Shown here: positions 20,543 to 55,593 of the stretch, in pieces | Layout: each line of letters begins with the position of its first letter | Position numbering within the stretch: the stretch's first letter is position 1 | Assembly: GCA_964493145.1 (NCBI GenBank) | Contig: CAZBMV010000001.1 | Location: 54,623 to 118,622 of the forward strand | Origin: an uncultured Candidatus Saccharibacteria bacterium | Lineage (GTDB): Bacteria > Patescibacteriota > Minisyncoccia > Phycocordibacterales > UBA918 | Direction: 5' to 3' | Length of the DNA stretch: 64,000 nt | The notes under the pieces: model-generated | Databases searched by the model: none | Told to the model about the DNA's origin: nothing | The model's input: the letters and a program-made list of their open reading frames with translations, nothing else | Program-made: the position numbers and the translations under genes

Positions 20543-20623
20543 GGCTGTGTGTCGCACATCATACACCCATTTTTCGTAGACGCTATTCCTTAACAAGGTT
20601 ACATGGACACGGTACACTGAAGT

Positions 20624-21232: not shown

Positions 21233-21237
21233 CATAG

Positions 21238-21310
21238 CTCAGCCGGTAGAGCAGCTCCCTTTTAAGGAGAAGGTCCCAGGTTCGATCCCTGGTGGGCGGA
21301 CAAAATTTTT
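21238..21310 (+). tRNA. tRNA-Lys (anticodon TTT)
   Basis: CCGCCCATAGCTCAGCCGGTAGAGCAGCTCCCTTTTAAGGAGAAGGTCCCAGGTTCGATCCCTGGTGGGCGGA; loop CTTTTAA. Confidence 0.8.
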
Positions 21311-30836: not shown

Positions 30837-30840
30837 GGGT

Positions 30841-31317
30841 ATGAAAGTTCTCGCCTTTGATCCGGGGTATGATCGTTTAGGAGTCGCGGTACTTGAGCGA
30901 GATGCAGGAAAGGAAAAACTTCTCTTTTCCGAGTGTTTGGAAACCGACAGGAACACCTCTCTCTCTGAACGCTTGTTCCGTGTGGGGCAACATGTTGAGT
31001 TCCTTCTCAAAGAACACGCCCCGACCATCGTTGCACTGGAAACGCTCTTCTTTAATAAAAATGTAAAGACGGCAATTGGTGTTGCCGAGGTACGGGGTAT
31101 TATCCTTTTCCTCGCGCAGAGCGCTGGGTGTTCTGTTGCGGAGTTTGGTCCGCAAGAAATAAAAGTTGCGGTGACCGGCTACGGAAACAGTGATAAGACC
31201 GCTGTTTTCACCATGGTGAAGCGCCTCGTCGGCGGAGTGCCTGAGGGCGCATTGGACGACGAATACGACGCAATTGCGGTGGGTATTACGGCCCTCGCGC
31301 ACAAAAAACATTTGTAA
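30841..31317 (+). CDS. ruvC: crossover junction endodeoxyribonuclease RuvC
   Basis: MKVLAFDPGYDRLGVAV; the ORF-track N-terminal 33 aa would overlap yebC in another frame. Confidence 0.75.
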   Translation: MKVLAFDPGYDRLGVAVLERDAGKEKLLFSECLETDRNTSLSERLFRVGQHVEFLLKEHAPTIVALETLFFNKNVKTAIGVAEVRGIILFLAQSAGCSVAEFGPQEIKVAVTGYGNSDKTAVFTMVKRLVGGVPEGALDDEYDAIAVGITALAHKKHL

Positions 31318-40079: not shown

Positions 40080-40108
40080 AAATTTAGAAATACAAAAACC
40101 AACACTTT

Positions 40109-40142
40109 TATATTATAATTCCCCATGGGGAATTATAATATA
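40109..40142. repeat. perfect 34-bp palindrome TATATTATAATTCCCCATGGGGAATTATAATATA (copy 1; dyad extends to 40105-40146)
   Basis: Exact copies at 40758-40791 and 53597-53630, each with its own extra dyad-symmetric flanks. Confidence 0.8.
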
Positions 40143-40154
40143 AAAGTGTAATGT

Positions 40155-40724
40155 ATGGAGAAAAAGGAAAAAAAGAATGAGAGAATAAAACTGGGACCAA
40201 TTGGTGAAGCAATACTCGGAGTGGTTGCGGTTACAGGCATGGTTACTGTTTTTGCGGTATTCCCTGGTGTGACAACAGTTATCGCCCCCTTTTTAAAAAA
40301 GAAAAAATACTCACCAAAGCAAGCGATTGAAAGAAATATTAACTCACTCATCAAAAAAGGAGTTCTCAAAAAAGTAACTGACTCATCAGGAAACGAAAAA
40401 CTTGAACTCACAAAACGAGGACGATGGGAGGCCGCTCTCCGGTTTACTTCTCAAGATAGAAAGCAAACAAAATGGGATGGAGTTTGGAGAGTGGTGATAT
40501 TTGACGTACCACAATCAAAAGCAAAAGAACGAGGAGAACTTCGCAGGGCAATGCGTTTTTTCGGATTCAAACTTCTTCAAAAAAGCGTGTGGGTATATCC
40601 TTTTGCATGTGATGACTTCATTACACTTCTCAAAGATCATTTCGGTGTCTCGCGCGATGTTCTCTATATGAAAGTGTCACACATTGAAAACGACAAGCAT
40701 CTTAGGAGAGAGTTTGGTTTGTAA
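40155..40724 (+). CDS. membrane-anchored PaaX-family-like regulator (TM helix + wHTH-like + PaaX_C-like domain)
   Basis: TM helix IGEAILGVVAVTGMVTVFAVF; LIKKGVLKKVTDSSGNEKLELTKRG resembles the PaaX wHTH wing; TKWDGVWRVVIFDVPQSKAKERGELRRAMRFFGFKLLQKSVWVYP resembles the PaaX WDGxW...GFG core. Bracketed by the 34-bp palindromes. Confidence 0.45.
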   Translation: MEKKEKKNERIKLGPIGEAILGVVAVTGMVTVFAVFPGVTTVIAPFLKKKKYSPKQAIERNINSLIKKGVLKKVTDSSGNEKLELTKRGRWEAALRFTSQDRKQTKWDGVWRVVIFDVPQSKAKERGELRRAMRFFGFKLLQKSVWVYPFACDDFITLLKDHFGVSRDVLYMKVSHIENDKHLRREFGL

Positions 40725-40844: not shown

Positions 40845-41993
40845 TTATTGCAGATCAAACATCCAGAGCGCATTGTCGTTCTTGTTGATGAAGTAGAGCG
40901 CCGATTCATCCGGTGCAATGCCAATCGTGAGCACGTCAACCTCTCGTCCCGTTTCCGTAAGAAAATTGCTTAATACCGTTGCTTTGCCTTCTCTAATATC
41001 AATTCGCCAGAGCACGTCACTGTAGGAGATGCTCCCCATGTACCAATCATCAGGAAATCGCTTCCCTGCACCGAGGTCTTCAGGTGCAGAACAGTACAGG
41101 TATGAAGAACCACTGATACACTTTTCCGGAATGACAGTAATCGGAACAACGGAAGGGTTCCCCTCAGAAAGGTTTGCGAGAGAGTAGACAACACCATCAG
41201 CAAGCACCGTTGTAATCGGTGTTGCGTGGTGCACAATACCCATAAGGCCATACCCACCCGCGGTTACGTACCGAAGCCTATTTTTAGACACTTCATAAAG
41301 TGACCCTCGCTGCATTGCTGTTGGAACAGTGTACACGTACGTTGTCTCGCCCCAAATTACGTGGATATCCCGAAGCGGGATGCTAAACAACTGCACGGTC
41401 GTTTCTTTTTGCACATCGTATGCGTACCCCACAGAACCACTTTCATCCTTGAGTAGGTAGTACAACGTGCTCGTCGCTTCTCCAAAATGTATTTCAGTTG
41501 CTCCTGCCGGTAATTTTTTTCCTACGAATGAGCCACCCTGTGCTGATGCAAGTGTTCCAACGAGCGTTTCTGTATTAAGTTGAGACAGAAGCGTGATCGC
41601 AACAGAAGCGCCGTTTCGTGAAAATACTGCCTCGCGTGCACCAGGGAGCGTTGTGCCACTGATGAGTGACTCAGAACCATTCGCGGTGTTGATTTGGTAG
41701 ATGTGTCCGGTCCCCTGCTCCACGTAACGTATACCACCATCAACAAAACTCGCTCCCGCGACAGGGCGAACGGTAAGTTGTTTCAACTTCTGTATCTTAC
41801 CTGCGATGTTTATATCCTGAACATCAACGACCGAGTCATGAACTGCGACATCAGACGAATTTCCTCCAATACCAAAGTTTGAAAAAACTTCCGAACCATT
41901 CTTGGGAGACCCGAAGGTGAAAAGGTACGCCCACACACCTAGAATGATGAGAATGAGAAGGGTTCCTATAATAATGAGAATTGTTTTTTTCAT
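40845..41993 (-). CDS. secreted/membrane-anchored repeat-rich protein (beta-propeller-like), first gene after the T4SS-like cluster
   Basis: N-terminal TM/signal, Gly/Ser/Thr-rich repeats, no catalytic motifs. Confidence 0.4.
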   Translation of the reverse strand: MKKTILIIIGTLLILIILGVWAYLFTFGSPKNGSEVFSNFGIGGNSSDVAVHDSVVDVQDINIAGKIQKLKQLTVRPVAGASFVDGGIRYVEQGTGHIYQINTANGSESLISGTTLPGAREAVFSRNGASVAITLLSQLNTETLVGTLASAQGGSFVGKKLPAGATEIHFGEATSTLYYLLKDESGSVGYAYDVQKETTVQLFSIPLRDIHVIWGETTYVYTVPTAMQRGSLYEVSKNRLRYVTAGGYGLMGIVHHATPITTVLADGVVYSLANLSEGNPSVVPITVIPEKCISGSSYLYCSAPEDLGAGKRFPDDWYMGSISYSDVLWRIDIREGKATVLSNFLTETGREVDVLTIGIAPDESALYFINKNDNALWMFDLQ

Positions 41994-42736
41994 TGTGGCA
42001 TACCTTGATTTCCGTCATTACCGTAAGACGCATCTCCATAAGTACATTCTCCAACTGAAGCACTTATTATTGTGAACGTACCACTACGTGCGCTACATTG
42101 CGCGCGCGCACCACTATCATCGTAATCAACGATGTTATAACACGAAGGACAAACAGGATCAAAAATAGGAGTAAGTGAGTAACGCTCCGTTTGTATGGTA
42201 ACGTTTGTGTTTCGAATCGCCTCATCGGCAAGTTGTTCTGACGTTCTACCTTCGCCCGTATCGATGCCACCTGCTCCTGTTCCCCGCGAAGACTGATTAA
42301 GTTGAACTTTCGTTGCGTTTTCCAACACATTCAATTTCGTGAGTTCCGGGTTGATGGTGTAGAGCACGATGTACGGGAGGAGGAGTATGGCAAGTCCCAT
42401 GAGCACGCCTTTAATATCATCTTTAGCAGAAGATTTACCAGTCACCACTTCAGTTGTCGCATATTTAACACCCGCGATGGCTATTTTTACAACACCGAAA
42501 AGCGCACCGATGGAAATGAGGAGAATGTATATTTTGTTTATGTAATCAGGAAGGCTCGTCGCACCAGATGTATTGAGTCCGGGGACGTTCACGAGGGGCG
42601 TGTATTTTGCCGTCTGTGCGAGAGTGGGAGTCGCAAAAACAGCAACAAAGAAAAAAACTAAAAAGACAAGAGAAAAAACGCGGGCGAGATGAGTTTTTGT
42701 TGTACATGAAGAAAACATACGCTTATTCAAAAACAA
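41990..42736 (-). CDS. TrbC/VirB2-like pilin candidate with Cys-rich C-terminal extension
   Basis: Signal peptide, then two hydrophobic helices (ILLISIGALFGVVKIAIAGV and VLMGLAILLLPYIVLYTI) separated by a short polar loop, as in VirB2/TrbC. Confidence 0.4.
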   Translation of the reverse strand: MFLNKRMFSSCTTKTHLARVFSLVFLVFFFVAVFATPTLAQTAKYTPLVNVPGLNTSGATSLPDYINKIYILLISIGALFGVVKIAIAGVKYATTEVVTGKSSAKDDIKGVLMGLAILLLPYIVLYTINPELTKLNVLENATKVQLNQSSRGTGAGGIDTGEGRTSEQLADEAIRNTNVTIQTERYSLTPIFDPVCPSCYNIVDYDDSGARAQCSARSGTFTIISASVGECTYGDASYGNDGNQGMPQ

Positions 42737-43733
42737 GATTCAGTGCCTTTTCAATAAATTGTGGGACAGTACCTTTTGTGACCACCCGATACTCCACCTG
42801 TGCGGAGCCCGCCCCGCCCGTGCGTGCCAAAACGAGCGCGTTGGGGATACCTGTCTTTGATTGTACCTCGGTACCGTCAAGTTTCCACACAAAATCAGCA
42901 CTCTGTGCCGTTAAAGCGGTATTGAGGAAAAAGGGCTCACCGAAAAGGGTTGTTTCGTCACTCACAAACGAGAACGGATTTCGCACTTCACGGAGGAGGA
43001 GCCCGAGGAGCGGACTGTGTTCGTAAAAGTGTACCTCGGGTTCAACAAGATTTATTTCCACTTCCCCCCTTCCCACAGAGCGCCCATCATTCGCAAAAAC
43101 TTCAACGGAGATCTCTTCTTCACCAAACAGGGACGACGTGATGGTTACGGCATACCTTCCCTTAACCGGCCCCCCAAAAAGAACAGATCCCGCACGACTC
43201 CATTTATACGTGTACGCGGAGAGGGGCATGCTTGAGCCGTCGTCAACAACAGCGACGAGTTTCATTGGGGTGTTGTGTGTGGGGAGGCGGCGACCTTTGT
43301 AGAATGTGGGAACGTACGAATCTGTTTCAACAACAACATCCACGACGGAAGGTGTAAGGGTAATTTCTTTTGAGAGCGAAGGCGCTCCCGTTTTTGTGAG
43401 GACGACACGAACGGAAAGTTTTTCACCCACGTCACCCGTACGAAGAGAAATGGAGCGTTCGTTCTCAAGGTCAGACCGCCTTTCTCCGTCCACAAACCAT
43501 GAAACAGTCGCACCTATCGCATCTACCGAATAGTCATCAAGCGAAACAACGACAGTTGAGTGGGGGGCGGGGTACGATGGACGTGTGGTGAGCTGAACCC
43601 CAGCGCCGCCCAGTGCGGCAAATTGCGCATGGGCAGGAGAAAAGGAAACAAGAAACAAACCGAAAGCCAACCCAAAAAACCATAGAGAGTGAAGACGTTT
43701 CATGTTCCCAACCATATACAGTAAGTGTATCAC
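42723..43733 (-). CDS. secreted hypothetical protein (signal peptide)
   Basis: 336 aa with signal peptide, beta-rich; coupled to the neighbouring genes by overlaps. Confidence 0.4.
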   Translation of the reverse strand: MIHLLYMVGNMKRLHSLWFFGLAFGLFLVSFSPAHAQFAALGGAGVQLTTRPSYPAPHSTVVVSLDDYSVDAIGATVSWFVDGERRSDLENERSISLRTGDVGEKLSVRVVLTKTGAPSLSKEITLTPSVVDVVVETDSYVPTFYKGRRLPTHNTPMKLVAVVDDGSSMPLSAYTYKWSRAGSVLFGGPVKGRYAVTITSSLFGEEEISVEVFANDGRSVGRGEVEINLVEPEVHFYEHSPLLGLLLREVRNPFSFVSDETTLFGEPFFLNTALTAQSADFVWKLDGTEVQSKTGIPNALVLARTGGAGSAQVEYRVVTKGTVPQFIEKALNLVFE

Positions 43734-43794
43734 GCTACAGACATTCTCTGCTTAACTAATAAACAAAAGAGAGTTATTCCCAGGGTAGTCCTCA

Positions 43795-44490
43795 TTACCG
43801 CACAGCCTTTGTATTTTTGCTAAACAAAATATAACACACCCAAATAACAAGCCACGGAAAGAGATTTGTTACAGGGAAGATATTAAGCGCTAAACAAACA
43901 GCGGTCACAAATGTTGTCATTGTTGTTGCTAGGGGGTCAATTTCAAACAAATAAAATACAAACATGTAACAAATGAAAAGCACAAGAGTCATAACAACAA
44001 CTACAATCCAGAGCGCATACCCGAGAGGTTCAAAAAACAGCCAGTCTTGGAAATCAAACATCTTTCCAAGAAGTTTTCCGTACCACGTTTCATGTCGCAC
44101 ATGCAATACCACGCCATGGAGACCAAAACCAACAAGAGAACCCAATGCACAAACCAACTGGATGACGTACGCAAACAGAATTATTGAAATTGTAAAACGA
44201 AATGCTGTTTTCGTAACAACGCCAGCCGGTTTCATTTTTTTGGTAAGACTCCTTTTCAGGTTTCGTCTAACGTACTCATTCTTTGCCACACGAAGCGCTT
44301 CTGCCGTTTGGGACACAGTCCCCTCGGTACGTTCACCAGGTTCTTCCACAGGAATTTCATTCGTTTCAACACCCCTTTCTTTTTTTTCCCAATAATCAGC
44401 AAGGAGGCGTTCGTCGGTTGTTTGGCGTGATGGTAAGGAAGAAACCTTCTCATTCCAATCCTTTTGCTTGGCTTCATCAATATGTGGCAT
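43795..44490 (-). CDS. polytopic membrane protein of the T4SS-like cluster
   Basis: 231 aa, charged N-terminus plus 4 TM helices. Confidence 0.4.
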   Translation of the reverse strand: MPHIDEAKQKDWNEKVSSLPSRQTTDERLLADYWEKKERGVETNEIPVEEPGERTEGTVSQTAEALRVAKNEYVRRNLKRSLTKKMKPAGVVTKTAFRFTISIILFAYVIQLVCALGSLVGFGLHGVVLHVRHETWYGKLLGKMFDFQDWLFFEPLGYALWIVVVVMTLVLFICYMFVFYLFEIDPLATTMTTFVTAVCLALNIFPVTNLFPWLVIWVCYILFSKNTKAVR

Positions 44491-44495
44491 AGTGT

Positions 44496-46292
44496 CTATG
44501 TACTACCTCGTGCAAGTTCCGCACGCGCTTGCTGTATCTGGAGGAGTTGCGATGGGTCGGACGTGATGATTTGGTCTTCCGTGTATGACGCCATGACCTT
44601 AATCGCGACGTGCTTAAGGCCGACGAAGAAGATACCCTCCCCCACCCCTGACTCTAAAAGCATGAACTTTTCTTCATCGGTGAGGTTGAACACGCTCTGG
44701 AGTGTGTCAATCGCCGTCGGTGATTGCTTCATGAGAAGCTGAATGGATGAATTCGTGATCATCGGAACGCCGTACGGTGAGCGAAGGAAATCGTCCACGT
44801 CTTGTGTGATTGTTGAGAGGCCGAGGTAGTACTTTCGTCCGCGCTTTGCGACATTGTGGAGAAAGGCGGCCGTGTCGGGGGATTTGAGCATCCACCACGC
44901 CTCATCAATGACGAGGAGGCGCTTTTTGAGTTCACGACGAACCGCACCCCAGATGTGGTTCGTGATGATGTACATGGCGATGGTCTTCAACTCCTCCTCC
45001 ATGTCACGGAGAGAGAAGACGATGAACTTTTGATTGATGTCCACATTTGTCGGTTCGTTCATGAAGCCCGCCCACGTACCCGATGTGTACTTTGTGAGGC
45101 GTTGTACCAATGATTCGCTCCCCTCCATTCCCGCGAGTACCATTTCAAAATCCGAGAGGAGGGGTGGCGGGAGGTCGCGATAGTCACCGTTTCCCGTGAT
45201 GTCCTTGAGGGCATACACCTCGTGAAGCGCCGCATCAATGATGGCGTCTTCTTCCGGCGTGAGTCCGCCGAGCATGAGACGCATGAGCCCCACGAGTTCA
45301 ATAATGTGCGAGCGGAGAAGTTCCTTCGGATTTTCATCGGCTTGCGGTACGGGGAGATCAAACGGATTGATGTGGTGACTTGAGGAGAGCGAGATGTTGA
45401 AGAAGCGACCACCGGTTGCTTCCGCGAGGTACTCGTACTCACGTTCCGGATCAATGACGATGACTTCCGTACCGAACATGAGCGAGCGGAGAATTTCCAG
45501 CTTTGTCGTGTACGACTTTCCCGCGCCGGATGTTGCGAAGGTGACCGAGTTGTAGTTTGTGAGCTTGAAGCGATCAAAGAGCACGAGGGAACTGTTGTGA
45601 CGATTGATGCCATAGAGAATGCCGTTGTCCGAGGTGAGATCAAACGAGGTGAACGGGAAAAAACTGGAGAGTGGCGAAGAGTTGAACTTCGTGTGCACGA
45701 GGAGCATGTCGGAAACGGTGGGAATGACACTCAAGAACCCCTCTTCTTGCTGGAAAAGTGCCGGCTTAATGTAGACGAGCCGTGCATCAAGAATACCCTT
45801 TACTTCAGTTTCCATTTTGTTGAGAGTCGCCTCATTGTCGGCGTAGAGCGCAATGTAGAGGCCGACGTTAAAAAGCTTCTCTTCCGCTTGCTGAAGTTTG
45901 TCACGGAGGTCCTCAAGGTTGCGGTATGCGGCATCAAGTTGCGGGTCGCGAACCATCCCCTTCTCGGCACGCTCATTGATTTGGCTCTGAACCTCAGCGA
46001 CCTTTTTTTGGAATTTCTTAAGAGTCTCTGTCGTGTTGATAGGGTGCACAACGATAGACACATCAATTTCCCGCTCAAGGTTGAGGACAGGTTCAAGCCA
46101 CCCGTCATTGAGGTACCGCGGGTACGACACCGCAAAAAAGACACGTGAGAGGCGTCCGCTCACATTGAGACTGCGCGGATTTATACTTATTGCGGACGGA
46201 GCAACAACATCGGTGAGCGAGAGCGGAGTGTTCGCCGGCGTTGCTTCTGTAGCATCTTTCTTTTTTTGTTGTATAAAATCAAAAAGACTCAT
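44496..46292 (-). CDS. virB4: VirB4/TrbE/CagE-family type IV secretion ATPase
   Basis: Walker A FATSGAGKSYTT, Walker B LLVIDEAWWML, the GRKYY motif, and the N-terminal FFAVSYPRYLNDGWL region typical of VirB4. Confidence 0.8.
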   Translation of the reverse strand: MSLFDFIQQKKKDATEATPANTPLSLTDVVAPSAISINPRSLNVSGRLSRVFFAVSYPRYLNDGWLEPVLNLEREIDVSIVVHPINTTETLKKFQKKVAEVQSQINERAEKGMVRDPQLDAAYRNLEDLRDKLQQAEEKLFNVGLYIALYADNEATLNKMETEVKGILDARLVYIKPALFQQEEGFLSVIPTVSDMLLVHTKFNSSPLSSFFPFTSFDLTSDNGILYGINRHNSSLVLFDRFKLTNYNSVTFATSGAGKSYTTKLEILRSLMFGTEVIVIDPEREYEYLAEATGGRFFNISLSSSHHINPFDLPVPQADENPKELLRSHIIELVGLMRLMLGGLTPEEDAIIDAALHEVYALKDITGNGDYRDLPPPLLSDFEMVLAGMEGSESLVQRLTKYTSGTWAGFMNEPTNVDINQKFIVFSLRDMEEELKTIAMYIITNHIWGAVRRELKKRLLVIDEAWWMLKSPDTAAFLHNVAKRGRKYYLGLSTITQDVDDFLRSPYGVPMITNSSIQLLMKQSPTAIDTLQSVFNLTDEEKFMLLESGVGEGIFFVGLKHVAIKVMASYTEDQIITSDPSQLLQIQQARAELARGST

Positions 46293-46297
46293 AGGTG

Positions 46298-46918
46298 TTA
46301 CCGTTGCGGTGCTTGTGAAAGGTCCTCGGGATTAAAAATGTGGTAGTACAGTTCGGTGAGTTCGTCTGTTCCCAGAGGCGCGGTACGGATGCCGATGCGC
46401 GCGAGCCCCTGCTCCACGACAGACACGCGCTGTTCCAACTGCATGCGGTCTTCAAAAAATTTATCTGAGACACCTCCCCCCTTTTTTGTTTTCGGCTTAA
46501 GGAATTTCCCTATACCCTCAACCTCAAGCGACGCTGACCTATACGGCACAATGACAAAGAAATTCTTTGTCATAATTTCCACTTCGCTCGTAAAGGTGGT
46601 AATGAACTCCATGTACTCTCGCAACTGAATGCGCATGAGGTCGTTGTCTTGATGCGATTCTCTCTCTTTGAGGATTTCTAGGTACGGCCGTATATCAAGA
46701 CGTCGCGACTGAGCGTATATTTGGAGAGAAAAGTCCACCGCATTAAGAAATGCCTGAAATTGAGAGAGAATCGCCTGCTGTTCTTCGGATGCTTTGAGCG
46801 CAAAGTTTATGGAAGAGGCGAGGAGCACCATACACATTTGCCCATCTTTAAGAATGACGACATCATCGTGAATGTCTGCAATGGGAACAAATTGTTGCGT
46901 TGCGTTTTGTGTTGTCAT
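46298..46918 (-). CDS. T4SS-associated protein resembling the extreme N-terminus of Gram-positive VirB4 (possible split VirB4 N-fragment)
   Basis: VPIADIHDDVVILKDGQMCMVLLASSINFALKASEEQ resembles the DG.I.KDG...L.V..INF.L.S.EEQ start of TraE/TcpF-type VirB4. Stops 5 nt before the VirB4 start. Confidence 0.4.
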   Translation of the reverse strand: MTTQNATQQFVPIADIHDDVVILKDGQMCMVLLASSINFALKASEEQQAILSQFQAFLNAVDFSLQIYAQSRRLDIRPYLEILKERESHQDNDLMRIQLREYMEFITTFTSEVEIMTKNFFVIVPYRSASLEVEGIGKFLKPKTKKGGGVSDKFFEDRMQLEQRVSVVEQGLARIGIRTAPLGTDELTELYYHIFNPEDLSQAPQR

Positions 46919-46920
46919 AA

Positions 46921-47322
46921 TTAACGTTCGGTTTGATTGAGCTCAAGTTTTTTAGTCAGCGCCGAAATGGAATTTTGGTGAACGGAAGAAAGATCTGATG
47001 TTTGCTGGGCTTCTTCCCCGTAGCCGTTTGTCACCGTCTGTGAGGATTCGCGTTTCCAAAGGTACAGTTTATTCTTTGTCGTATACCGCGCCGCTGACTC
47101 AAGGAAGAGTGAGAACGGGCGATTGTTGACGCGGTGAAATGCGAGCGAAAAAGAGAGGGCGGCAATCGGGAGGCCAAAGAGAATCGCCAAAATAAAAGGA
47201 GCGCTCAAAAAAAGAATGACGAGGATGCCCACTCCACCGGCGAGGTACACGAACTGGCGCCACGTAAGGGGGCCAATAACCTTGTCTTCAATCTCAATGA
47301 ATTGAGGAACCTCAAAGCGCAT
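46921..47322 (-). CDS. PrgI/VirB3-like small membrane protein
   Basis: MRFEVPQFIEIEDKVIGPLTWRQFVYLAGGVGILVILFL...; hydrophobic hairpin, positioned before VirB4 as in Gram-positive T4SS. Confidence 0.45.
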   Translation of the reverse strand: MRFEVPQFIEIEDKVIGPLTWRQFVYLAGGVGILVILFLSAPFILAILFGLPIAALSFSLAFHRVNNRPFSLFLESAARYTTKNKLYLWKRESSQTVTNGYGEEAQQTSDLSSVHQNSISALTKKLELNQTER

Positions 47323-47378
47323 ATATCAGTATTGTACCTTATCCGCACGCCCGCTCCCCCACGGGCGTGCGGATAAAA

Positions 47379-47930
47379 CTACTCACCCGCCCTTTTCCCC
47401 TCCTCGTATGCTTCGTACCCTCGTACGGGAGAGGAGGCACCGGACTCGTCTTTGATAGACGCAATATCTTTTTGCATGGTGCGTGTTGGCGCAATTGCCC
47501 TAAGCACCTCTTCGCGTGTGAGCGGACGCGGGCTATTCTCGTTTGTACCACTCGCGTTCTCAATTCCTTCGGGACGGAGCTCAAGTTTTTCACGAGTGTC
47601 TTTATTTGCACTCGGTAACACAACTGTTTCAGCAGTAGCATTCAGCGAATTAAAAAAGACACCAATAGTTTTTTCAATTTCAGGTATATGCGCAGAATCA
47701 ATTCCCAAAGCAGAAAGTTCATTTTTAAAATCTTCAGGCGACTTAAAACCAAGAATTGTATCGCCAATTAAGTCAATGAAAGCAAGTCTTTTTTGCTCAT
47801 CAAAATTATTTTTTGTTACCAATACACCAATAACTTCTCCTAGCTCTAGGCTACCGTATAGATTTTTTACCGGCACACTAGCATTTCGGTATGCAAGAAG
47901 CCTTTTTTCAGAGGTGATAGTGTCGTTCAT
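47379..47930 (-). CDS. hypothetical protein of the T4SS-like cluster
   Basis: 183 aa, no motif; stop abuts the start of the upstream gene. Confidence 0.35.
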   Translation of the reverse strand: MNDTITSEKRLLAYRNASVPVKNLYGSLELGEVIGVLVTKNNFDEQKRLAFIDLIGDTILGFKSPEDFKNELSALGIDSAHIPEIEKTIGVFFNSLNATAETVVLPSANKDTREKLELRPEGIENASGTNENSPRPLTREEVLRAIAPTRTMQKDIASIKDESGASSPVRGYEAYEEGKRAGE

Positions 47931-47931
47931 A

Positions 47932-50199
47932 TTAGAATCTTGAACCTGCCGGAGTACTAAAGAAATTATTAAATGCGTTATTCCCGTGGATCATTTGAAC
48001 ATTTCGTTTAATGTTCGCTCTCGCCGTGTCGTCAATTGAATCATTATCAAGTATTTTTGTGAGTACATTTGCGTTTAGATGCTGCGCTGCTTTAACATCA
48101 GTAAGAATTTGAACAGGAAGATTTGCTCTCTCAGAATCATTACGAATTCTTCCAAACAAACGTGTTGCTGAAGCGGGGGTTGAAACACCTGCGGGCGCAA
48201 ATTCTGTAATAAGTGAAGTGTTTCGGGCATTTTTGAGAACAGATTTTTCGCTGGGGGTGAGGTTCTTCATGTCGTGGATCTGTTTTGATGTCAAGTGACC
48301 GGCATGTTGGACAAGTGTGTTGAAGTCCATTGCATCAAGATCACTTGCATCTGCTTTGCTAATATTCCCAGCATTTCCTCCTGCGCCTCCCGATACCCCA
48401 TGTTTATTTTGAACGTGAATTGAGCGAGCAGAGCGTAATTTCGCTTTCTTCTCATCGTCAAGGTCTTCAGACTTTGCTTTCATTAAGGATTCAAACTGAG
48501 AAGAAGACATATTTTCCACGAGAGCATTATATTCGGGAGTTCCCTCTTTATGTTTTTCAAGAAGTTTCAAAAGTTGTTCATTTGAAGCGTTTGTGATGGA
48601 ACGTTCCATGTCAATTCTTTGTTGGCTTCCAGTAGGTGCCGAATGACCTGCGGCAATATTGGCACCAATATTACTGACTTGGGCACTTTGTGCCCTAGCT
48701 CTCTTAATTTCTTTTGTTTCATCTTTTTTGTCCTTGAATGTTTTACTGCCACCGTAATTACTTTTCGCCGCTTTTGTTGCAACTGCGTTTATTCCAGTGG
48801 CACGCATAGCTAGGGCACCAATTTGCGCGCCTCTAGTATTGCTTTTGCGTAATGAATCCTGTTTGTCGGCGACCCACTGACCAGCACGACCAATCGTGTT
48901 GCGTCCCATCCACCCGGTAGCACCTTTACGAAGATTATCACCGGCGCCAATCATCATTCCCGCACCCTCAACCCCAAGCTTCTTTGCCACGAGTAGAGAT
49001 TGGATGAGGAAGAAAATGATGACGGAAAAGTTTAGGAACATGTAGTATGAATCCGCCTGTTCCCCATTGGTCATCGCTTTCATGAAACTTCCACCTGAAC
49101 CAATAAGGTTGAGCCCACCAATGAGTGTGAGTGAAATGAGTGTGAGAAAAAGGTAAATTGGTGCGAAAAAAGCTTGTGCAAGCAGTTTTCCCCAAAGTGA
49201 GGACGCCATGCTTGCCGTTTTTGGGAAAATAGTTGCGGCAAAAAGAATCGGTGAGGCAACCATAATGAGAATGAGAATCACAAACCGAATCACGAGCAGT
49301 ACCGCAGCAGCGAAGAACACAAATGCCGCAATGAAGAGAACTAATGCGCCGAGAACGTAGAACCAAACCATGCCAGCTTTTGTTACGTTGTTGAAAGTGT
49401 TCGGGTCAGGTGCTTTGAAAATGGTTGTAATTCCAAGACGATCAGCAACAGCAGCGGAAATGGTACCCCCCCCGTCTGTCATGGAGGTATAAATTTGGTA
49501 TGAAGTATAGTTTCCGAAATCAACAACAAATTTCACAATGAAGAGACTGAAGTTGATGAGGAGCGCACCGATGATGATGCGTGAGAGTGTTTGCTTTATA
49601 AAGTGACTATCCGGGTCAATAATGGCTCTGATGCCGAGGTAGATGAATCCGAAAATAAAAGCCAGGTTTGCAAAGTCACGAACGAGTTTCCACGCGTTAT
49701 CTATCGCCAAACCAAATGATTGTGTATTGACCATGTCGCCCATACCAAAAACAAATTTTTGGAGTGCAGCATCAAGAAGCGTCCCTCCTACCCACGTAAA
49801 CGCGGACGCCATTGTGAGAATGAGGTTACCGATGTACTGACCAACTTGTGACCAAAAACCACCGTCCTCTTTTTTCTTGTCTTTCGCTGTAGCAGCTTGG
49901 TTTTTTGCTTCCGCTTCTCTCCGCACCTCTTCTTGCCACTGTTGGTTGAGGGCGTCGTTTTCAGCCTGTCTTTCATCATAAGTCTGTGTATCGTTTTGAT
50001 CTGCGATAGCGCCAAGATCTACATTTGAGGTATCAACCCCTTGAGTATTGCCGCGCGTATAGTCAACAGCAGTAGGATCAGCGTCTTGAGCAAAACCAAC
50101 ACGCACCATTCCAAAAAAAGAAAAGAGGAAAAGAAGTGCAATCGCCAAAAGGGTTGTTCTCTCCCCGAGCGTATTTTTTTGTTGATGCAGAGAAGTCAT
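47932..50199 (-). CDS. VirB6/TrbL-like polytopic membrane protein with long hydrophilic C-terminal extension
   Basis: Signal-like N-terminus (MTSLHQQKNTLGERTTLLAIALLFLFSFFGMV), ~8 TM helices, then a ~330-aa polar tail. The ORF-track start (50400) overlaps the upstream gene by 200 nt and is trimmed. Confidence 0.45.
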   Translation of the reverse strand: MTSLHQQKNTLGERTTLLAIALLFLFSFFGMVRVGFAQDADPTAVDYTRGNTQGVDTSNVDLGAIADQNDTQTYDERQAENDALNQQWQEEVRREAEAKNQAATAKDKKKEDGGFWSQVGQYIGNLILTMASAFTWVGGTLLDAALQKFVFGMGDMVNTQSFGLAIDNAWKLVRDFANLAFIFGFIYLGIRAIIDPDSHFIKQTLSRIIIGALLINFSLFIVKFVVDFGNYTSYQIYTSMTDGGGTISAAVADRLGITTIFKAPDPNTFNNVTKAGMVWFYVLGALVLFIAAFVFFAAAVLLVIRFVILILIMVASPILFAATIFPKTASMASSLWGKLLAQAFFAPIYLFLTLISLTLIGGLNLIGSGGSFMKAMTNGEQADSYYMFLNFSVIIFFLIQSLLVAKKLGVEGAGMMIGAGDNLRKGATGWMGRNTIGRAGQWVADKQDSLRKSNTRGAQIGALAMRATGINAVATKAAKSNYGGSKTFKDKKDETKEIKRARAQSAQVSNIGANIAAGHSAPTGSQQRIDMERSITNASNEQLLKLLEKHKEGTPEYNALVENMSSSQFESLMKAKSEDLDDEKKAKLRSARSIHVQNKHGVSGGAGGNAGNISKADASDLDAMDFNTLVQHAGHLTSKQIHDMKNLTPSEKSVLKNARNTSLITEFAPAGVSTPASATRLFGRIRNDSERANLPVQILTDVKAAQHLNANVLTKILDNDSIDDTARANIKRNVQMIHGNNAFNNFFSTPAGSRF

Positions 50200-50200
50200 A

Positions 50201-51706
50201 TTAGAAATTTGTCTCCTGACATGCGTTATCAATGGAACCGGTGAAGGACGAAATTTCGGTTTGCAAGTTCGGAATGGTTTGCAATTCAACGGACACGAGT
50301 TGTGGAGCGGAATGCAAATTATTTCCGTCGCGGAACGCCATAAATCGTTCCATAATACGTGATTGTGCTGCGGGGATTGATGTTGCATTGTACTTTTCAA
50401 GGAGTGAGTTTATCGTCGCACCGGGAGTTGATGAATTTTCCAGTGCAGAGTAATCGGCGAGCCAGACGTTAAGTGTTGCAATAACTGTTTGCGCTGAAGC
50501 AATCGCAGTTTGCGCTGAGCTCAGTTGACTTTGGAGCGACGAGGTGAGGTTGCCGGGGGTACAGACCTCGTACACCTCATTTCCGCTATCGTCGGTTGTT
50601 GTCGCTCCGGGGTACACTCGTTCTCGGTACGTTGAGGCATCAGTGATGAGATTGACAATTTGTTGCTGAAGACCGAGGTAGCGTTCCTCATTTGTTATGG
50701 CGGTTCTCAGTGCGGAGTTTGCACCCTCAGAAGCACCGGTAACATCGGTTGAATCTTGCATTGGCTCATCACGCATTCGGTCAAAGTAATCTCCGGAAGA
50801 ACCGTTCCCCGGTTCGGTGAGACCGAGGAGCCCACCGACACCACCTAACGCTTCACCTACGAGTTGTGCAAAGAGAGCTCCGACGAGCTCATTGATCTCA
50901 TCCGCGGCAGCAATTCGTTGGTTCGTAAGACCCAGAGCACTGTTTAATTGGTCTTCAATAACAGAACCGGGAGTGATAATGTTTCCATAATCGTCTTCCC
51001 TGGAGAGAAATCCCTTACCAAACTCAAGAAGTTTAATTTCTTGCCCCTGCGCATTGCTGATGCTTGCGTACATTGCCGTGTTTGCCTCAAGGTATGCACT
51101 GTATGGGTTGTTCCCCGGCATGAGTGCCATTTCGTACCACCCATCCCAGCCACCCGCGAGGAAGTTTCCGTTCATAAAACTTTCCATATTGCTCACGACG
51201 CCACTCAGCGTACATTGCGCTTGGTAGTTGCGACGTTGGTTGTACTGCATCTGGAGTGCAAGTTGAACGTTAAGCTTAAACGGCGAACAGAGAAACTTGA
51301 GCGGTGAACCCCAAATGAAATCACCCGCTACTCTGTCAGCGATATTCATGAGGAATCCCTCAAGGTCGGTCACAAAGGCGGGGCTCCCCTGAAAGCCCGA
51401 GTTCACCCACTTGGTCGTACTCTTGATCATTTGTTGAATAGTGAGGTTGACGAGTTGCCACGCGATTTTATCAAGGACATACTCCTTTGTCGCCAGACTT
51501 TGAATGGAGGCGGACGTTATGGCATCAAACGCCGCGGAGATTGCACTTTGCACCCACGCGCCTATTTCTCCGACGATATTATCATCAAACGAGTGCGCCT
51601 TTTGAACCGTTAACGACTGCGAGACCGGAGCAAAAACAAAACTTGAAACAAGAACAAAGGAGGTGGCGATGAGGGTTACTTTTTTAAGAAATGAAGGCGA
51701 CATCAT
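50201..51706 (-). CDS. secreted hypothetical protein (501 aa)
   Basis: Signal peptide; Gly/Ser/Asn-rich; no motif. Confidence 0.4.
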   Translation of the reverse strand: MMSPSFLKKVTLIATSFVLVSSFVFAPVSQSLTVQKAHSFDDNIVGEIGAWVQSAISAAFDAITSASIQSLATKEYVLDKIAWQLVNLTIQQMIKSTTKWVNSGFQGSPAFVTDLEGFLMNIADRVAGDFIWGSPLKFLCSPFKLNVQLALQMQYNQRRNYQAQCTLSGVVSNMESFMNGNFLAGGWDGWYEMALMPGNNPYSAYLEANTAMYASISNAQGQEIKLLEFGKGFLSREDDYGNIITPGSVIEDQLNSALGLTNQRIAAADEINELVGALFAQLVGEALGGVGGLLGLTEPGNGSSGDYFDRMRDEPMQDSTDVTGASEGANSALRTAITNEERYLGLQQQIVNLITDASTYRERVYPGATTTDDSGNEVYEVCTPGNLTSSLQSQLSSAQTAIASAQTVIATLNVWLADYSALENSSTPGATINSLLEKYNATSIPAAQSRIMERFMAFRDGNNLHSAPQLVSVELQTIPNLQTEISSFTGSIDNACQETNF

Positions 51707-52575
51707 ATGTCAAAAAGATAAAAGAACGCGCCGAGTTCGTCGTTTGCATAGGTAATACCGTTTTCACCGAGAGCTTCGCCCATAGCCTTGAAGGAATTTG
51801 CCATAGCGGTTACATCATCATAGTACTTTCGTACGCGCGCGAGGGCGTAGAGTGGGTCATCAAACGCCTTTTCCATTGCTTCTATGTCGGTGAGAATTGC
51901 TTCGTACGCATTGAGGAGCGCGAGGTGTTCATTGACGAACGAATCCGGCACGCTCATTTTAAGCATGTCATTAATCATGCCGACGTACGCCTCGCGTATG
52001 GGTGCGAGTTTTGCGAGCACGGCGGGGTCGTTCGTATCAAGCGCTTGTTTTAAAATTGTCACCTCATTCACCCCTCCCGTTTGATACTTCACGACGATTT
52101 CCGGTATGCGATTTCCATACTCGCGCATCGCTTCAAAGGTCGCAGGAACGATGGTGAGTTCAAGACGAGAGCGACGTTTGCTCTGTGTGTTTTCTTCAAT
52201 GGCGGTGACGGCATTCCCGACGAGCAGAGACGGGTCGCTGAAATCTTGACCGTTTATTTTCCCCTGAAGGTAGTCTTGAAAAAATGCTTCAGAAAATTTT
52301 CCCGTGAAGGTGGTTGGTTCCTCGTACGGTTCCGCACCCTCTGCTTCATTGTTTGGCGCGGGTGGCGTTATTGCTTTGATACCAAGACTTTCCTCCCAAT
52401 CTTTAATGCCATCATTGTCCGAGTCGGTCGCTTCAATATACGTTCGTTCGGGTGCCACCGCGACGACGACTTGTGCTTCCTGTGGTTGTGCCGTCGTCGC
52501 ATTCACGTGCAAAGCGCCAAGGATGATGACGATCCCCATTGCGACTGCTCCTCCTATACGAATACTCCCTTTCAC
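51703..52575 (-). CDS. secreted/anchored hypothetical protein, first gene of the T4SS-like cluster
   Basis: N-terminal TM/signal and a DSDNDGIKDWEE (calcium-binding-like) segment. Confidence 0.4.
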   Translation of the reverse strand: MKGSIRIGGAVAMGIVIILGALHVNATTAQPQEAQVVVAVAPERTYIEATDSDNDGIKDWEESLGIKAITPPAPNNEAEGAEPYEEPTTFTGKFSEAFFQDYLQGKINGQDFSDPSLLVGNAVTAIEENTQSKRRSRLELTIVPATFEAMREYGNRIPEIVVKYQTGGVNEVTILKQALDTNDPAVLAKLAPIREAYVGMINDMLKMSVPDSFVNEHLALLNAYEAILTDIEAMEKAFDDPLYALARVRKYYDDVTAMANSFKAMGEALGENGITYANDELGAFFYLFDI

Positions 52576-52649: not shown

Positions 52650-53531
52650 TTAACTCTGTGGAGAGAGAGGTTGATTTTGATGTGTGTAGAGTTTGTGCGC
52701 GAGCGCGAGCCACTTCTCAAGAGGAACGTCTTCCCCGCGGACGTCTTCCCTAAGGCCGAGTGTGGAAAAAGTGGGGGTAAGAACATCGCGCGCAACCATA
52801 CCGGAAAGATTTCCAATGAGTTGCTTCCGCCTTGACTTGAACCCACAGTGGAGCACCGAGAAGAAAAATTCCTGAAAAGAAGGTGTCTCCCCCGCATTCC
52901 CTAGGGTTCCCCTAGGGAATGCGGGGGGAGACAGGCGGTCTTTTGAAATGTGCTGAACTGCGAGAATGGCCGAATCAATCTTTGGAGGAGGCATGAAATT
53001 GCCTTTTGTGACGGTTTTTACGTACCGTGGTTCACCAAAAACCTTTACAGAGAGCGACAAAACCGACTCCTTCTCGCTTCGTGCAATGCGCTCGGCGACC
53101 TCTTTTTGTACAAGAAAAACGAGAGTTAATGGGGGTATGTCATGCTCAAGAAAATGGCGAAAAAGAAAGCCGGAAATGTAGTAGGGGATGTTTGCTATGA
53201 GTTTGTAGGCACTCGGCCGAAGGCCGAGTGCCCCGAGGTCAACATTCCGTACATCATCATGCACAATAACAAGCTTTTTAGCCGTAATTTCCTCCTCAAA
53301 GGTTTTTTGAAGTGCTTCAACGGCACGTATGTCTGCCTCTATGGCGACAACATTTGCCCCACGAATGAGAAGTTCACGAGTGAGCATGCCGGTCCCGGGG
53401 CCTACCTCAAGCACTACATCACCCCTTTTTACCTCTCCCGCTTCCGCCATTGCCTCTGAAATACGGGGATTTTTGAGAAAATGCTGCCCCAAAGACTTTT
53501 TTGCATCAATCTTTCCTATCCTTTTTTTCAT
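52650..53531 (-). CDS. ksgA: 16S rRNA (adenine1518/1519-N6)-dimethyltransferase
   Basis: LGQHFL, VLEVGPGTGMLT (motif I), NIPYYIS; contains a 46-nt palindromic in-frame segment (see repeat at 52885). Confidence 0.85.
   Translation of the reverse strand: MKKRIGKIDAKKSLGQHFLKNPRISEAMAEAGEVKRGDVVLEVGPGTGMLTRELLIRGANVVAIEADIRAVEALQKTFEEEITAKKLVIVHDDVRNVDLGALGLRPSAYKLIANIPYYISGFLFRHFLEHDIPPLTLVFLVQKEVAERIARSEKESVLSLSVKVFGEPRYVKTVTKGNFMPPPKIDSAILAVQHISKDRLSPPAFPRGTLGNAGETPSFQEFFFSVLHCGFKSRRKQLIGNLSGMVARDVLTPTFSTLGLREDVRGEDVPLEKWLALAHKLYTHQNQPLSPQS
52885..52930. repeat. 21-bp inverted repeat with 3-nt spacer embedded in-frame in ksgA (TCTCCCCCGCATTCCCTAGGG-TTC-CCCTAGGGAATGCGGGGGGAGA)
   Basis: Seen directly; encodes the PAFPRGTLGNAGETPS segment of KsgA. 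Confidence 0.7.
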
Positions 53532-53640: not shown

Positions 53641-55593
53641 CTAATCCAAGTACACCGTCCGTTCATAGCCGGATTCGCTCGGGTTTGTACTCTCAAGGAG
53701 TTCTTCGCGGATGTCGCGCAAAAAAGAAGACGGGGCGTTGACGCGTTGGCTTCCAAAAATAGTACGCATGTGCGCGTAGGAGAGAAAAACCTTTTTTTGC
53801 GCGCGCGTGAGCGCAACGTAAAAGAGGCGGCGCTCCTCTTCTTCATCAACACCCTCGTCACTCAAGCGCTCGTGTGGGAAGAGACCATCTTCAAGTCCGG
53901 TGATGAATACGTACGGGAACTCAAGACCTTTGGATGCGTGGATGGTCATGAGACGTACCGCGTCCAGTTCGTCCTTGTCTTTGAGTTCATCCTGGTCGCT
54001 CCCGAGTGCGGAATCTTCAAGGAGGTGCTCTATCGCTTCTTCGGGTTCATACTCGCAATACTTCGTTCCGAGGGAGACGAGTTCGCGTACGTTTTCAAGA
54101 CGTTCAAGCCCCTCTTCTCCATTCTGTCGATACTCCCCCTCCATCCCCGTTCGTTTCATGATGAACGCGAGCGTCTCGTGGACGGGATGACCTTTCGCGT
54201 ACGTCGCGATTTCATCTATGAGTGCATAAAACGCGTCAACTTTCTCACGCGTTTTTGCAGGAAGATCATCGCGCTTCCCCTCCACCACCTTGAGAACGGT
54301 TACCTTGCCTATGCCCCGCGGAGGTGTGTTGATGATACGTACCAGGTCCCCCGTTCCTTCCGGGTTGAGCGCAAAGCGCAGGAACGCGAGAACATCCTTC
54401 ACCTCCTTCCGTTCAAAAAACTTCGTGCCGAGCATTTGGTACGGCACATCGTAGTTGATGAAGGCTTCCTCAAGCGCACGCGACTGAAAGTTGGTACGGA
54501 AGAGAACGGCGATGTGCGAAGGAGACACCCCTTTTTTTATGAGGTCCTTTGCGGTCATGGCAACGTACTCCGCCTCCTCCTGTCCTCCCATCGCGGCGTA
54601 AAGCGAAATGAGTTCCCCGGGGTGATTTTTTGTAAACACTTTTTTCAGAGGGCGGTTCACATTCTTTCCGATGATGTCATTGGACGCCGCAATGATGGTT
54701 TGCGTGGAGCGGTAGTTTTCCTCCAGCATGATTATTTTTGCCTGTGGAAAGTGACGTTCAAATTGCAAAATATTTTTGATGTCAGCACCCCTCCACGAGT
54801 AAATGTTTTGATCCACGTCACCAACGACGCAGAGGTTTGCGCGCTCTCCCACAATGAGCCGTGCAATTTCATACTGGACACGGTTCGTGTCTTGGTACTC
54901 GTCTATGTGGACGTACGTAAAGCGATCGCGGTACTCGGCAACAATTTCGGGGTGACTCTTGAGCATGGAAAGCGTCTTTGCGAGGAGGTCATCAAAATCA
55001 AGTGCGTGTTCGTCTTTGAGAATCGTGTCGTAGTGCGCCCACACTTCCGCCGCCACACGCTCAGGGTACGTGCGGCTTTCTCCCGCGAAGTCGCTACGTG
55101 TCTGTGCGTCTCCCTTCGCGCGTGAAATAATGGAAAGAATTTTACGCGGTTCAAACTGTTTTGGGTCGTGCCCCGCGCGCTCCATCGCCTTTTTTATCGC
55201 ACCTATGGAGTCACTGCGATCGTATATGGCGAACTGCTTTTTGAGTCCGAACACCCCATGGTGCTCTCTGAGCATACGAACGCCGAGAGAGTGGAAGGTA
55301 GTCACGAGGGGGACACCGCCATCGGTACTGCGTGCGCTCCCGTGAAACACCTCTATAAGGTGCATGACACGTTCGCGCATTTCTTTTGCCGCTTTGTTGG
55401 TAAAGGTGACGGCGAGAATTCGCTCAGGTGGTATACCGCTCAGTATGAGGTGGATGATGCGGTGCGTGATGACTCTCGTTTTCCCTGAGCCGGCACCCGC
55501 GAGCACGAGAAGCGGACCCTCGGTTGTCATCACCGCATTTTTTTGTGCCTCGTTGAGACCTTCAAGGTGTTTTTTGGAAAAAGTGTCGTCCAT
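53641..55593 (-). CDS. pcrA: UvrD/PcrA/Rep-family ATP-dependent DNA helicase
   Basis: Motif I GAGSGKTRVITHRI, Ia, II (DEYQDTN), and VGDVDQNIYSWRGA. Confidence 0.9.
   Translation of the reverse strand: MDDTFSKKHLEGLNEAQKNAVMTTEGPLLVLAGAGSGKTRVITHRIIHLILSGIPPERILAVTFTNKAAKEMRERVMHLIEVFHGSARSTDGGVPLVTTFHSLGVRMLREHHGVFGLKKQFAIYDRSDSIGAIKKAMERAGHDPKQFEPRKILSIISRAKGDAQTRSDFAGESRTYPERVAAEVWAHYDTILKDEHALDFDDLLAKTLSMLKSHPEIVAEYRDRFTYVHIDEYQDTNRVQYEIARLIVGERANLCVVGDVDQNIYSWRGADIKNILQFERHFPQAKIIMLEENYRSTQTIIAASNDIIGKNVNRPLKKVFTKNHPGELISLYAAMGGQEEAEYVAMTAKDLIKKGVSPSHIAVLFRTNFQSRALEEAFINYDVPYQMLGTKFFERKEVKDVLAFLRFALNPEGTGDLVRIINTPPRGIGKVTVLKVVEGKRDDLPAKTREKVDAFYALIDEIATYAKGHPVHETLAFIMKRTGMEGEYRQNGEEGLERLENVRELVSLGTKYCEYEPEEAIEHLLEDSALGSDQDELKDKDELDAVRLMTIHASKGLEFPYVFITGLEDGLFPHERLSDEGVDEEEERRLFYVALTRAQKKVFLSYAHMRTIFGSQRVNAPSSFLRDIREELLESTNPSESGYERTVYLD

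Follow-up and report, generated by a model that had tools for sequence, protein, structure and literature searches.

A Patescibacteria-type type IV secretion gene cluster without nearby DNA-transfer genes, close to dnaA in a Paceibacteria genome

How should a gene cluster be understood that resembles a type IV secretion system (T4SS) and has neither a relaxase nor a coupling protein beside it? Such a cluster lies in a stretch of 64,000 nucleotides of contig CAZBMV010000001.1 (assembly GCA_964493145.1), the whole of which was analyzed and is called the window below. A sequence-only reading of this DNA had described the cluster in terms that implied novelty. Judged from its protein sequences, however, the cluster almost certainly belongs to the Patescibacteria clade of T4SSs, which is derived from the MPF_FATA class. 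It derives from Gram-positive conjugation machinery, is passed on vertically and is present here in a Paceibacteria genome; as a whole, it is very probably best explained as a Patescibacteria T4SS without nearby DNA-transfer genes, combined with a putative host-directed translocon. This system has already been described rather than being new, because the features that looked unusual equal published ones, and the implied novelty gives way to a composition that is standard for T4SSs of the Patescibacteria clade (PMC12102498, PMC10633639, PMC12857230). The window offers a clean and complete Paceibacteria example of it.

Core components of the secretion machinery

The relationship of the cluster to T4SSs, as the sequence-only reading had proposed, is carried by the family assignments of VirB4, TrsD, PrgI, VirB6 and the pilin. 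The VirB4 ATPase, which had been called clear, reaches 360.5 bits (E = 1.8e-107) with its best model, NF045971 (conju_CD1110), whose curated cutoff is 325 and which represents the MPF_FATA prototype family CD1110/CTn2. It also matches PF19044 (E = 9.2e-25), and its Walker A (ATSGAGKS) and Walker B (LLVIDE) motifs are intact. The second-best model is the VirB4 of Mycoplasma integrative conjugative elements (ICEs; Mbov_0397), at 263 bits, followed by MPF_F TraC (179 bits), MPF_T VirB4/CagE (123 bits) and MPF_FA TcpF (27 bits). This ranking, with CD1110 first and the Mycoplasma ICE second, agrees with an ATPase of the monoderm MPF_FATA class.

The ATPase covers only positions 180-733 of the 752-position NF045971 model. 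Five nucleotides upstream of virB4 stands a gene that had earlier been listed among those without an assignment, and its product proves to be TrsD-like (NF041427, E = 7.9e-10). The same protein matches N-terminal parts of full-length VirB4 models (positions 100-233 of NF045975 and 1-117 of NF045971), and its orthologs carry the TraC-like family PF26593. On the strength of these profile matches, VirB4 is read as split, with its N-terminal part supplied by the TrsD-like gene immediately upstream. For comparison we used a set of 84 related loci (L001-L084); relatives were counted as one genome per species, at least 580 were found, and the best 80 were used. The TrsD-like gene is present in 83 of the 84 loci, as is the gene for the PrgI/VirB3-like protein, whose proposed identity holds with a match to PF12666 above cutoff (E = 4.9e-11; 43.5 bits against 27).

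Family membership of the two remaining core proteins is best seen in their orthologs. The window VirB6 falls just below threshold against TrbL (PF04610; E = 6.5e-5, 23.2 bits against a cutoff of 25.9), and TrbL is matched by 15 of 64 VirB6 orthologs (best E = 2e-8), with precomputed TrbL/TrbL_3 matches on the orthologs of L001-L004. The window pilin is likewise sub-threshold, both against PF18895 (E = 1.2e-3; 19.3 bits against a cutoff of 26.6) and against the Mbov_0395 pilin-like model (E = 4.5e-3), and its positional orthologs match PF18895 in 44 cases out of 57 (best E = 2.1e-9) and TrbC/VirB2 in 4 of the 57. Because the orthologs match where the window proteins fall below the Pfam gathering threshold, we regard both identities as settled, and the profile comparison upholds the earlier proposals for the pilin and VirB6 at the family level. 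The pilin is accordingly listed here as a predicted VirB2-like pilin of family PF18895. Compared with PDB sequences, neither the VirB6 nor the pilin profile gave a significant match.

VirB6 combines about six or more transmembrane segments with a polar tail of ~340 amino acids at its C-terminus. It had been described as an 822-amino-acid polytopic protein with a 330-amino-acid polar tail; the family stands, but the length came from an over-extended open reading frame (ORF). The start is most likely the ATG at 50199, giving 755 amino acids, because this codon abuts the stop of the neighboring gene g9 at 50201 and the orthologs are ~700 amino acids long.

The pilin begins with a signal peptide and a two-helix pilin domain that runs to about residue 135 ('TINPEL'), after which comes a tail of ~113 amino acids with four cysteines. 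In the alignment of its orthologs (A6), a conserved two-helix domain ending in 'TINPxL' precedes a hypervariable tail of 0 to ~330 amino acids; the proteins span 140-469 amino acids overall, and the tail usually has cysteines, with a median of six per protein. The pilin C-terminus seems to be a platform for swapping extracellular domains. The sequence-only reading had singled out an unusual, Cys-rich tail of ~100 amino acids on a TrbC/VirB2-like pilin. The pilin and the cysteines are borne out, whereas 'rich' is generous for four residues and the tail itself is a family trait; the idea that it is a peculiarity of this genome was rejected, since tails of 0 to ~330 amino acids are the rule. As separate observations, two pilin-like genes flank g0, the last gene of the cluster, in L015 and L020, and one pilin-like ortholog carries a VanY D-Ala-D-Ala carboxypeptidase domain (Pfam); this ortholog was attributed to L052 through the alignment, the member being unnamed in the scan.

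Conserved order, absent DNA-transfer genes and published counterparts

VirB4 has more than 8000 homologs in the databases, and its top 120 clusters are 83-100% identical; those with names are assigned to Candidatus Paceibacterota, Pacebacteria or Minisyncoccia. The best 80 genome loci come from metagenome-assembled genomes (MAGs) of Kaiserbacteria, Nomurabacteria, Taylorbacteria, Campbellbacteria, Paceibacteria and Parcubacteria, and a MAG batch labelled 'uncultured Candidatus Saccharibacteria' has the same Paceibacteria-type locus. Synteny was assessed by searching the 84 loci for every window protein with tblastn and by tabulating their ORF architecture. Wherever the contig is long enough, the same order is kept: uvrD-rsmA-g10-g9-VirB6-g7-VirB3-TrsD-VirB4-g3-g2, then the pilin and g0 in either order, then yidC-rnpA-dnaA-dnaN-PBP1.

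Conservation differs sharply along this array. Median identity of the window VirB4 to the species-level loci is 70.8%, a figure inflated by the choice of loci, which was made on VirB4 similarity. At the same loci the medians are 62.5% for UvrD and 60.4% for DnaA (37245-38624), 55% for TrsD and 46% for VirB3, 37% for the pilin (pilin domain only) and 36% for g9, 29% for g10 and for VirB6, and 28% for g2 and g0. A strongly conserved cytoplasmic engine is thus combined with extracytoplasmic parts that change rapidly.

The flanks of the cluster are origin-proximal housekeeping genes. Downstream lie a PaaX-like gene, yidC, rnpA, dnaA, dnaN, a class A penicillin-binding protein (PBP) gene and a class I W/Y-family tRNA synthetase gene, with yidC, rnpA, dnaA and dnaN all less than 5 kb from the cluster, as they are in L001-L084. 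Outside the cluster, the Pfam scan covered ORFs of at least 150 amino acids, including all of at least 500, apart from a few ORFs of 155-183 amino acids and nested ORFs. Among the ORFs scanned in the 64-kb window there was no relaxase, VirD4/TcpA coupling protein, VirB11, VirB9, VirB10 or integrase. In the related loci, synteny leaves no space for a relaxase or a type IV coupling protein (T4CP) within 10 kb on either side of virB4. The other scanned ORFs gave no match or housekeeping functions, among them PolA, PilB, PilM, RuvA/B/C, a Mur ligase, SpoU, L19, UppS, a ZIP transporter and a ComM-like ATPase. The sequence-only reading had seen no relaxase, VirD4, VirB11, VirB9 or VirB10 in the window, had concluded that this is not a canonical conjugation system, and had pointed to type IV pilus genes elsewhere in the window. 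The scans agree on all three counts, the last through PilB (26994-28649, E = 2.1e-107) and PilM (13017-14117, E = 4.6e-27).

The composition and the setting of the cluster have been reported before. A survey found VirB4 in 2,417 of 3,035 Patescibacteria genomes, nearly all of it in one clade nested in MPF_FATA, with TrsD as the most abundant associated component and with VirB3/PrgI, VirB6 and VirB2-like pilins near virB4, the profiles used for the pilins being PF18895 and PF04956 (Quinonero-Coronel et al., 2025, PMC12102498). In the same survey, only 109 relaxase homologues and few T4CP genes near virB4 were seen in Patescibacteria; the T4SS of Paceibacteria and Microgenomatia adjoins dnaA, dnaN, rnpA, ksgA and rpmH; and LysM/M23-containing VirB1-like proteins were described, VirB1 homologues being associated with virB4 specifically in Paceibacteria (PMC12102498). 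The window shares with this Paceibacteria arrangement the MPF_FATA VirB4, the adjacent TrsD, PrgI/VirB3, VirB6 and the PF18895 pilin, as well as the lack of a nearby relaxase or T4CP, the location by dnaA, dnaN, rnpA and ksgA (rsmA), and a LysM/M23 VirB1-like neighbor; nothing substantive differs. Our additions are small: a fixed order of 11 genes, two fold assignments (three immunoglobulin (Ig)-like repeats and a TolB-like propeller) and the variable pilin tail.

The closest system with functional data is that of Candidatus Southlakia epibionticum ML1 (SEML1_0006-0019), in which transposon sequencing (Tn-seq) showed the T4SS and its pilin array to be essential for growth on the host (Wang et al., 2023, PMC10633639). 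Like the window, it has a chromosomal T4SS of the monoderm type whose cluster includes genes for pilins, TrsD, PrgI and VirB6, and it has no recognizable coupling protein or relaxase; the authors noted this lack and proposed that the system exports proteins or has another role (PMC10633639). TrsD, PrgI and VirB6 are essential there (PMC10633639). Ca. S. epibionticum is a member of Saccharimonadia rather than Paceibacteria, has six divergent pilins where the window has one long-tailed pilin, and, unlike the window, encodes a peptidase and a lysozyme immediately downstream of virB4. A 2025 review points out that VirB2-like pilins occur in no monoderm T4SSs other than those of Patescibacteria, and that theirs was the first T4SS shown to be essential (PMC12857230).

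More distant systems frame this pattern. The Gram-positive MPF_FATA systems (pGO1/pSK41 Trs, pCF10 Prg/Pcf, C. difficile CTn2 and the Mycoplasma ICE) have in common with the window the VirB4 family, TrsD (as in pGO1), a PrgI-type VirB3, a PrgH/VirB6-type channel and the absence of an outer-membrane core. These are mobile systems that also encode a relaxase, a T4CP, VirB1 hydrolases and VirB8-like proteins, whereas the window cluster is a fixed chromosomal locus; and they have no VirB2 pilin, except for a pilin-like protein annotated in Mycoplasma ICEs, while the window has one. The Gram-negative Bordetella Ptl and Brucella VirB systems resemble the window in working without a system-encoded coupling protein and in using a VirB2 pilin, Ptl exporting a periplasmically assembled toxin. 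Unlike the window, they are diderm systems of the MPF_T lineage with a VirB7/9/10 core and VirB11.

Possible roles of the system

The earlier suggestion that the cluster might serve DNA uptake, attachment or effector delivery repeats functional speculation that is already in print (PMC12102498, PMC10633639, PMC12857230), and these options can be weighed together with that of a mobile element. An ordinary or decayed ICE, whose relaxase, coupling protein and integrase lie just outside or have been lost, would account for core genes that descend from monoderm conjugation machinery and for best VirB4 models from CTn2 and the Mycoplasma ICE. However, the window ORFs of at least 150 amino acids that were scanned include no relaxase, T4CP or integrase, the GC content shows no anomaly, VirB4 is conserved at the level of housekeeping genes, and both the arrangement and the origin-proximal flanks are kept in 84 loci from different species. 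Because these loci repeat both the gene order and its context, the cluster is not a mobile or integrative element. Where an adjoining conjugative element had been considered, the neighbors are dnaA, dnaN, yidC, rnpA, rsmA and uvrD, with no mobile-element genes. The ICE hypothesis was rejected on this synteny, and we hold it to be extremely improbable. A machine importing host or environmental DNA, in the manner of H. pylori ComB or archaeal Ced, and so nourishing a cell incapable of nucleotide synthesis, fares little better and strikes us as very unlikely. Import needs no relaxase or T4CP, Patescibacteria are without nucleotide synthesis (PMC10633639), and VirB4 weakly matches CedB; yet that match is only 28.8 bits against a cutoff of 700 (CedD, 18 bits), family scans of the cluster proteins gave no VirB8/9/10 match, and there are no equivalents of VirB7-10 such as ComB has. 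In Ca. S. epibionticum, transformation needs ComEC and type IV pili, and deletion of comEC abolishes competence with viability unaffected, while the T4SS is essential (PMC12857230); the essential role of the T4SS is therefore not DNA uptake through ComEC. The window also has type IV pilus genes of its own for that role.

An attachment organelle, in which the ATPase and channel would assemble a VirB2-type adhesive pilus that keeps the epibiont on its host, without translocating any substrate, fits several features of the locus: the hypervariable, Cys-containing pilin tail, the Ig-repeat and beta-propeller surface proteins encoded in the cluster, the fast evolution of the extracytoplasmic parts, and the lack of a coupling protein nearby. 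Set against these, adhesion to the host is already the task of type IV pili in Saccharibacteria (PMC12857230), VirB6 is part of a channel and carries a large additional domain, and the extreme conservation of VirB4 would suggest a transport activity that is continuously needed. Attachment as the only function is thus distinctly unlikely in our judgment.

We favor a Patescibacteria T4SS that works as a translocon directed at the host. From known T4SS architecture, VirB4/TrsD together with VirB3 and VirB6 would form a translocon in the cytoplasmic membrane and a motor for pilin extraction, with VirB3/PrgI tethering the split TrsD/VirB4 energizing ATPase to the membrane. This translocon would polymerize the pilin into a surface filament, or form a short conduit that crosses the monoderm wall. 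Outside the membrane, and probably facing or contacting the host cell, would be g9, g10, the propeller, the Ig-repeat protein and the variable tail of the pilin. Such a machine would no longer conjugate DNA and would instead move proteins or other molecules between epibiont and host. A non-conjugative, host-directed translocation role of some form has, in our estimate, about an even chance of being correct. Direction is a further question, and the 2025 review speculates on a conduit for signals or for uptake from the host (PMC12857230). Perhaps the Paceibacteria-specific outer module (the pilin with its hypervariable tail, Ig-repeat protein, propeller, g9 and g10) is a device for host recognition and penetration and the T4SS an import 'feeding tube', through which host metabolites or macromolecules would be drawn into a cell unable to make nucleotides, amino acids or lipids, although we think this fairly unlikely. 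The evidence favors such import no more than protein export; if true, it would constitute a new functional class of T4SS.

Several considerations weigh against a host-directed, non-conjugative Patescibacteria T4SS. To our knowledge, no pilus has ever been seen for a Patescibacteria T4SS. The comparison of VirB4 with DnaA conservation is biased by the VirB4-based choice of loci, the assignments of the window pilin and VirB6, both below Pfam gathering thresholds, rest on their orthologs, and no VirB8-like protein is found among the anchored proteins (the g0 beta-propeller, the Ig-like g2 and the g10 helical bundle). DNA transfer by an unrecognized relaxase is possible. VirD4-like T4CP homologues occur in most Patescibacteria genomes at a distance from virB4 (PMC12102498), and a coupling protein may therefore exist outside the 64-kb window. 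Finally, the functional evidence comes from one Saccharimonadia species only, and its layout differs (PMC10633639).

For the biology of ultrasmall, host-dependent bacteria the system is among the more intriguing open questions: a conjugation-derived machine has turned into a core gene set, found in ~80% of surveyed Patescibacteria genomes and essential in the one species tested. The fixed order, the split between a conserved engine and a fast-evolving surface, the Ig and propeller folds, the pilin tail and the large g9 family could guide the choice of structural and genetic targets.

Cluster layout, accessory proteins and neighboring genes

The sequence-only reading had described ten co-directional minus-strand genes. 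The tight packing is confirmed, but the count rises to 11 with g0, which belongs to the conserved cluster because of its synteny across related loci and whose gene overlaps the pilin gene by 4 nt (Table 1). Spacing between the 11 ORFs, packed into 40845-52575, is only -14 to +61 nt, and the arrangement is therefore operon-like. A promoter and terminator scan of the cluster gave site counts not above shuffled expectation, so these sites allow no conclusion about an operon. GC content is 0.44-0.51, the same as in the flanks.

Table 1. Genes of the cluster, in order of transcription, and selected neighbors (window positions)
Feature	Position	Strand	Description
g10	51703-52575	-	290 aa; first cluster gene; membrane-anchored; no known family
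g9	50201-51706	-	501 aa; secreted; uncharacterized family
VirB6/TrbL-like polytopic channel protein, extended	47932-50199	-	755 aa; mechanical ORF extends to 50400
g7	47379-47930	-	183 aa; no transmembrane segment
PrgI/VirB3-like small membrane protein	46921-47322	-	133 aa
TrsD-like, VirB4 N-terminal domain as separate polypeptide	46298-46918	-	206 aa
VirB4-family ATPase, MPF_FATA type	44496-46292	-	598 aa
g3	43795-44490	-	231 aa; polytopic membrane protein
g2	42723-43733	-	336 aa; secreted; three Ig-like repeats
VirB2-like T4SS pilin	41990-42736	-	248 aa
g0	40845-41993	-	382 aa; last cluster gene; anchored beta-propeller
rsmA/ksgA	52650-53531		upstream of cluster, 74 nt away
uvrD/pcrA	53641-55593		upstream of cluster; 650 aa
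LysM + M23 peptidase	56003-57037	+	PF01551 E = 4.3e-31 + PF01476 LysM; beyond uvrD

Six of the genes (g10, g9, g7, g3, g2 and g0) are lineage-specific accessory genes. They encode a secreted protein with three Ig repeats, an anchored beta-propeller, two helical extracytoplasmic proteins, one polytopic protein and one protein without a membrane segment. The earlier count of five secreted or anchored proteins without assigned function therefore stands only in part: the 183-residue g7 has neither a predicted transmembrane segment nor a signal peptide, and the 231-residue g3 is polytopic.

The Ig-repeat protein and the propeller are the two accessory proteins with recognizable folds. In g2 the repeats have a period of ~100 amino acids, with invariant W79, W178 and W283 (alignment A1), and the profile matches the Ig-like T4 Hoc protein (3shs, E = 3.6e-6). 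Among the orthologs, 19 of 62 match PF06832 (BiPBP_C) and 7 of 62 match Ig_3. The gene is present in 81 of the 84 loci, and its true start in the window is probably the ATG at ~43703. In g0 an N-terminal membrane anchor precedes a TolB-like beta-propeller, which lies outside the cytoplasm, and residues C292 and C301 are invariant; its profile (A2) matches TolB structures (E = 4.8e-6), a few orthologs match PD40/beta-propeller families, and the gene occurs in 71 of the 84 loci, adjoining the pilin gene.

The two helical extracytoplasmic proteins are g10 and g9. In g10, an N-terminal membrane anchor is followed by a disordered acidic linker containing the motif DxDxDG..DWEE and then, outside the cytoplasm, by a helical bundle, which the AlphaFold2 model (mean pLDDT 79) places at residues 90-290. 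It has no match in Pfam, the family database searched; its 178 homologs are all hypothetical proteins of Kaiserbacteria/Paceibacterota, and tblastn found it in 47 of the 84 loci, always at the identical position. Behind its signal peptide, the g9 protein has a helical-bundle C-terminal domain and a conserved N-terminal domain of ~220 amino acids with invariant residues W100, G104, C140, C165 and P246. A VirB5-type pilus-tip protein, for which a three-helix bundle with a globular appendage and homology to TraC/VirB5 would be expected, is a candidate identity for g9. In its AlphaFold2 model the N-terminal domain is not confidently folded and the C-terminal bundle exceeds a pLDDT of 90. The g9 family is large, with a total of 5,697 representative clusters (threshold E <= 1e-3), and has no Pfam match. 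For neither protein did Foldseek return a PDB match at E <= 0.001, nor did their profiles match PDB sequences significantly.

The remaining two, g7 and g3, are conserved in position only, their sequences being divergent and fast-evolving. An ORF of 146-599 amino acids lies between VirB6 and VirB3 in 58 loci, and in 49 of the 58 it has no transmembrane segment; g7 is probably cytoplasmic, since it lacks such segments, and it matches no family and nothing in the PDB. The g3 protein has a charged N-terminal region and 3-4 transmembrane segments (3-5 in 43 of its 51 positional orthologs), and no family match was found.

Beyond uvrD, the gene for the LysM + M23 peptidase recurs on the opposite strand in 10 related loci that extend that far; it is also upstream in L063 and L064, but there uvrD is undetected or the order differs. 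This peptidase may be a VirB1-type cell-wall hydrolase partner, although its membership of the system is uncertain. The uvrD gene itself varies: the 1011-amino-acid UvrD/PcrA orthologs of two metagenome contigs (L001, 1-2865; L002, 1-2866) contain an intein (PF14890), and the window UvrD does not. On the other side, the PaaX-like gene (40155-40724, plus strand; Cas2-like middle domain), between yidC and the cluster, is missing from that position in 83 of the 84 related loci and present only in L007, and it looks like a small lineage-specific insertion beside the cluster. The 75-nt gap between yidC and this gene holds a near-perfect palindrome with a 20-bp stem, ACACTTTTATATTATAATTCCCCATGGGGAATTATAATATAAAAGTGT (40102-40149), which may serve the adjacent regulator as an operator or act as a terminator in both directions.

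Elsewhere in the window, eight tRNA genes (His, Leu, Val, Arg x2, Ser, Gly and Lys) are spread over 14 kb (7336-21301), interspersed with housekeeping and type IV pilus genes. A YebC/TACO1-like ORF (30291-30836) overlaps the RuvC ORF (30742-31317) by ~95 nt in a different frame. Its match to the second/third-domain profile is only partial, so that it may contain a frameshift or have a wrongly placed start. Near the right-hand end lie a DUF4143/AAA_14 ATPase gene (59911-61053, plus strand) and that of the ComM-like Mg-chelatase-family ATPase (61390-62913, minus strand), ComM being a competence-associated helicase in other bacteria.

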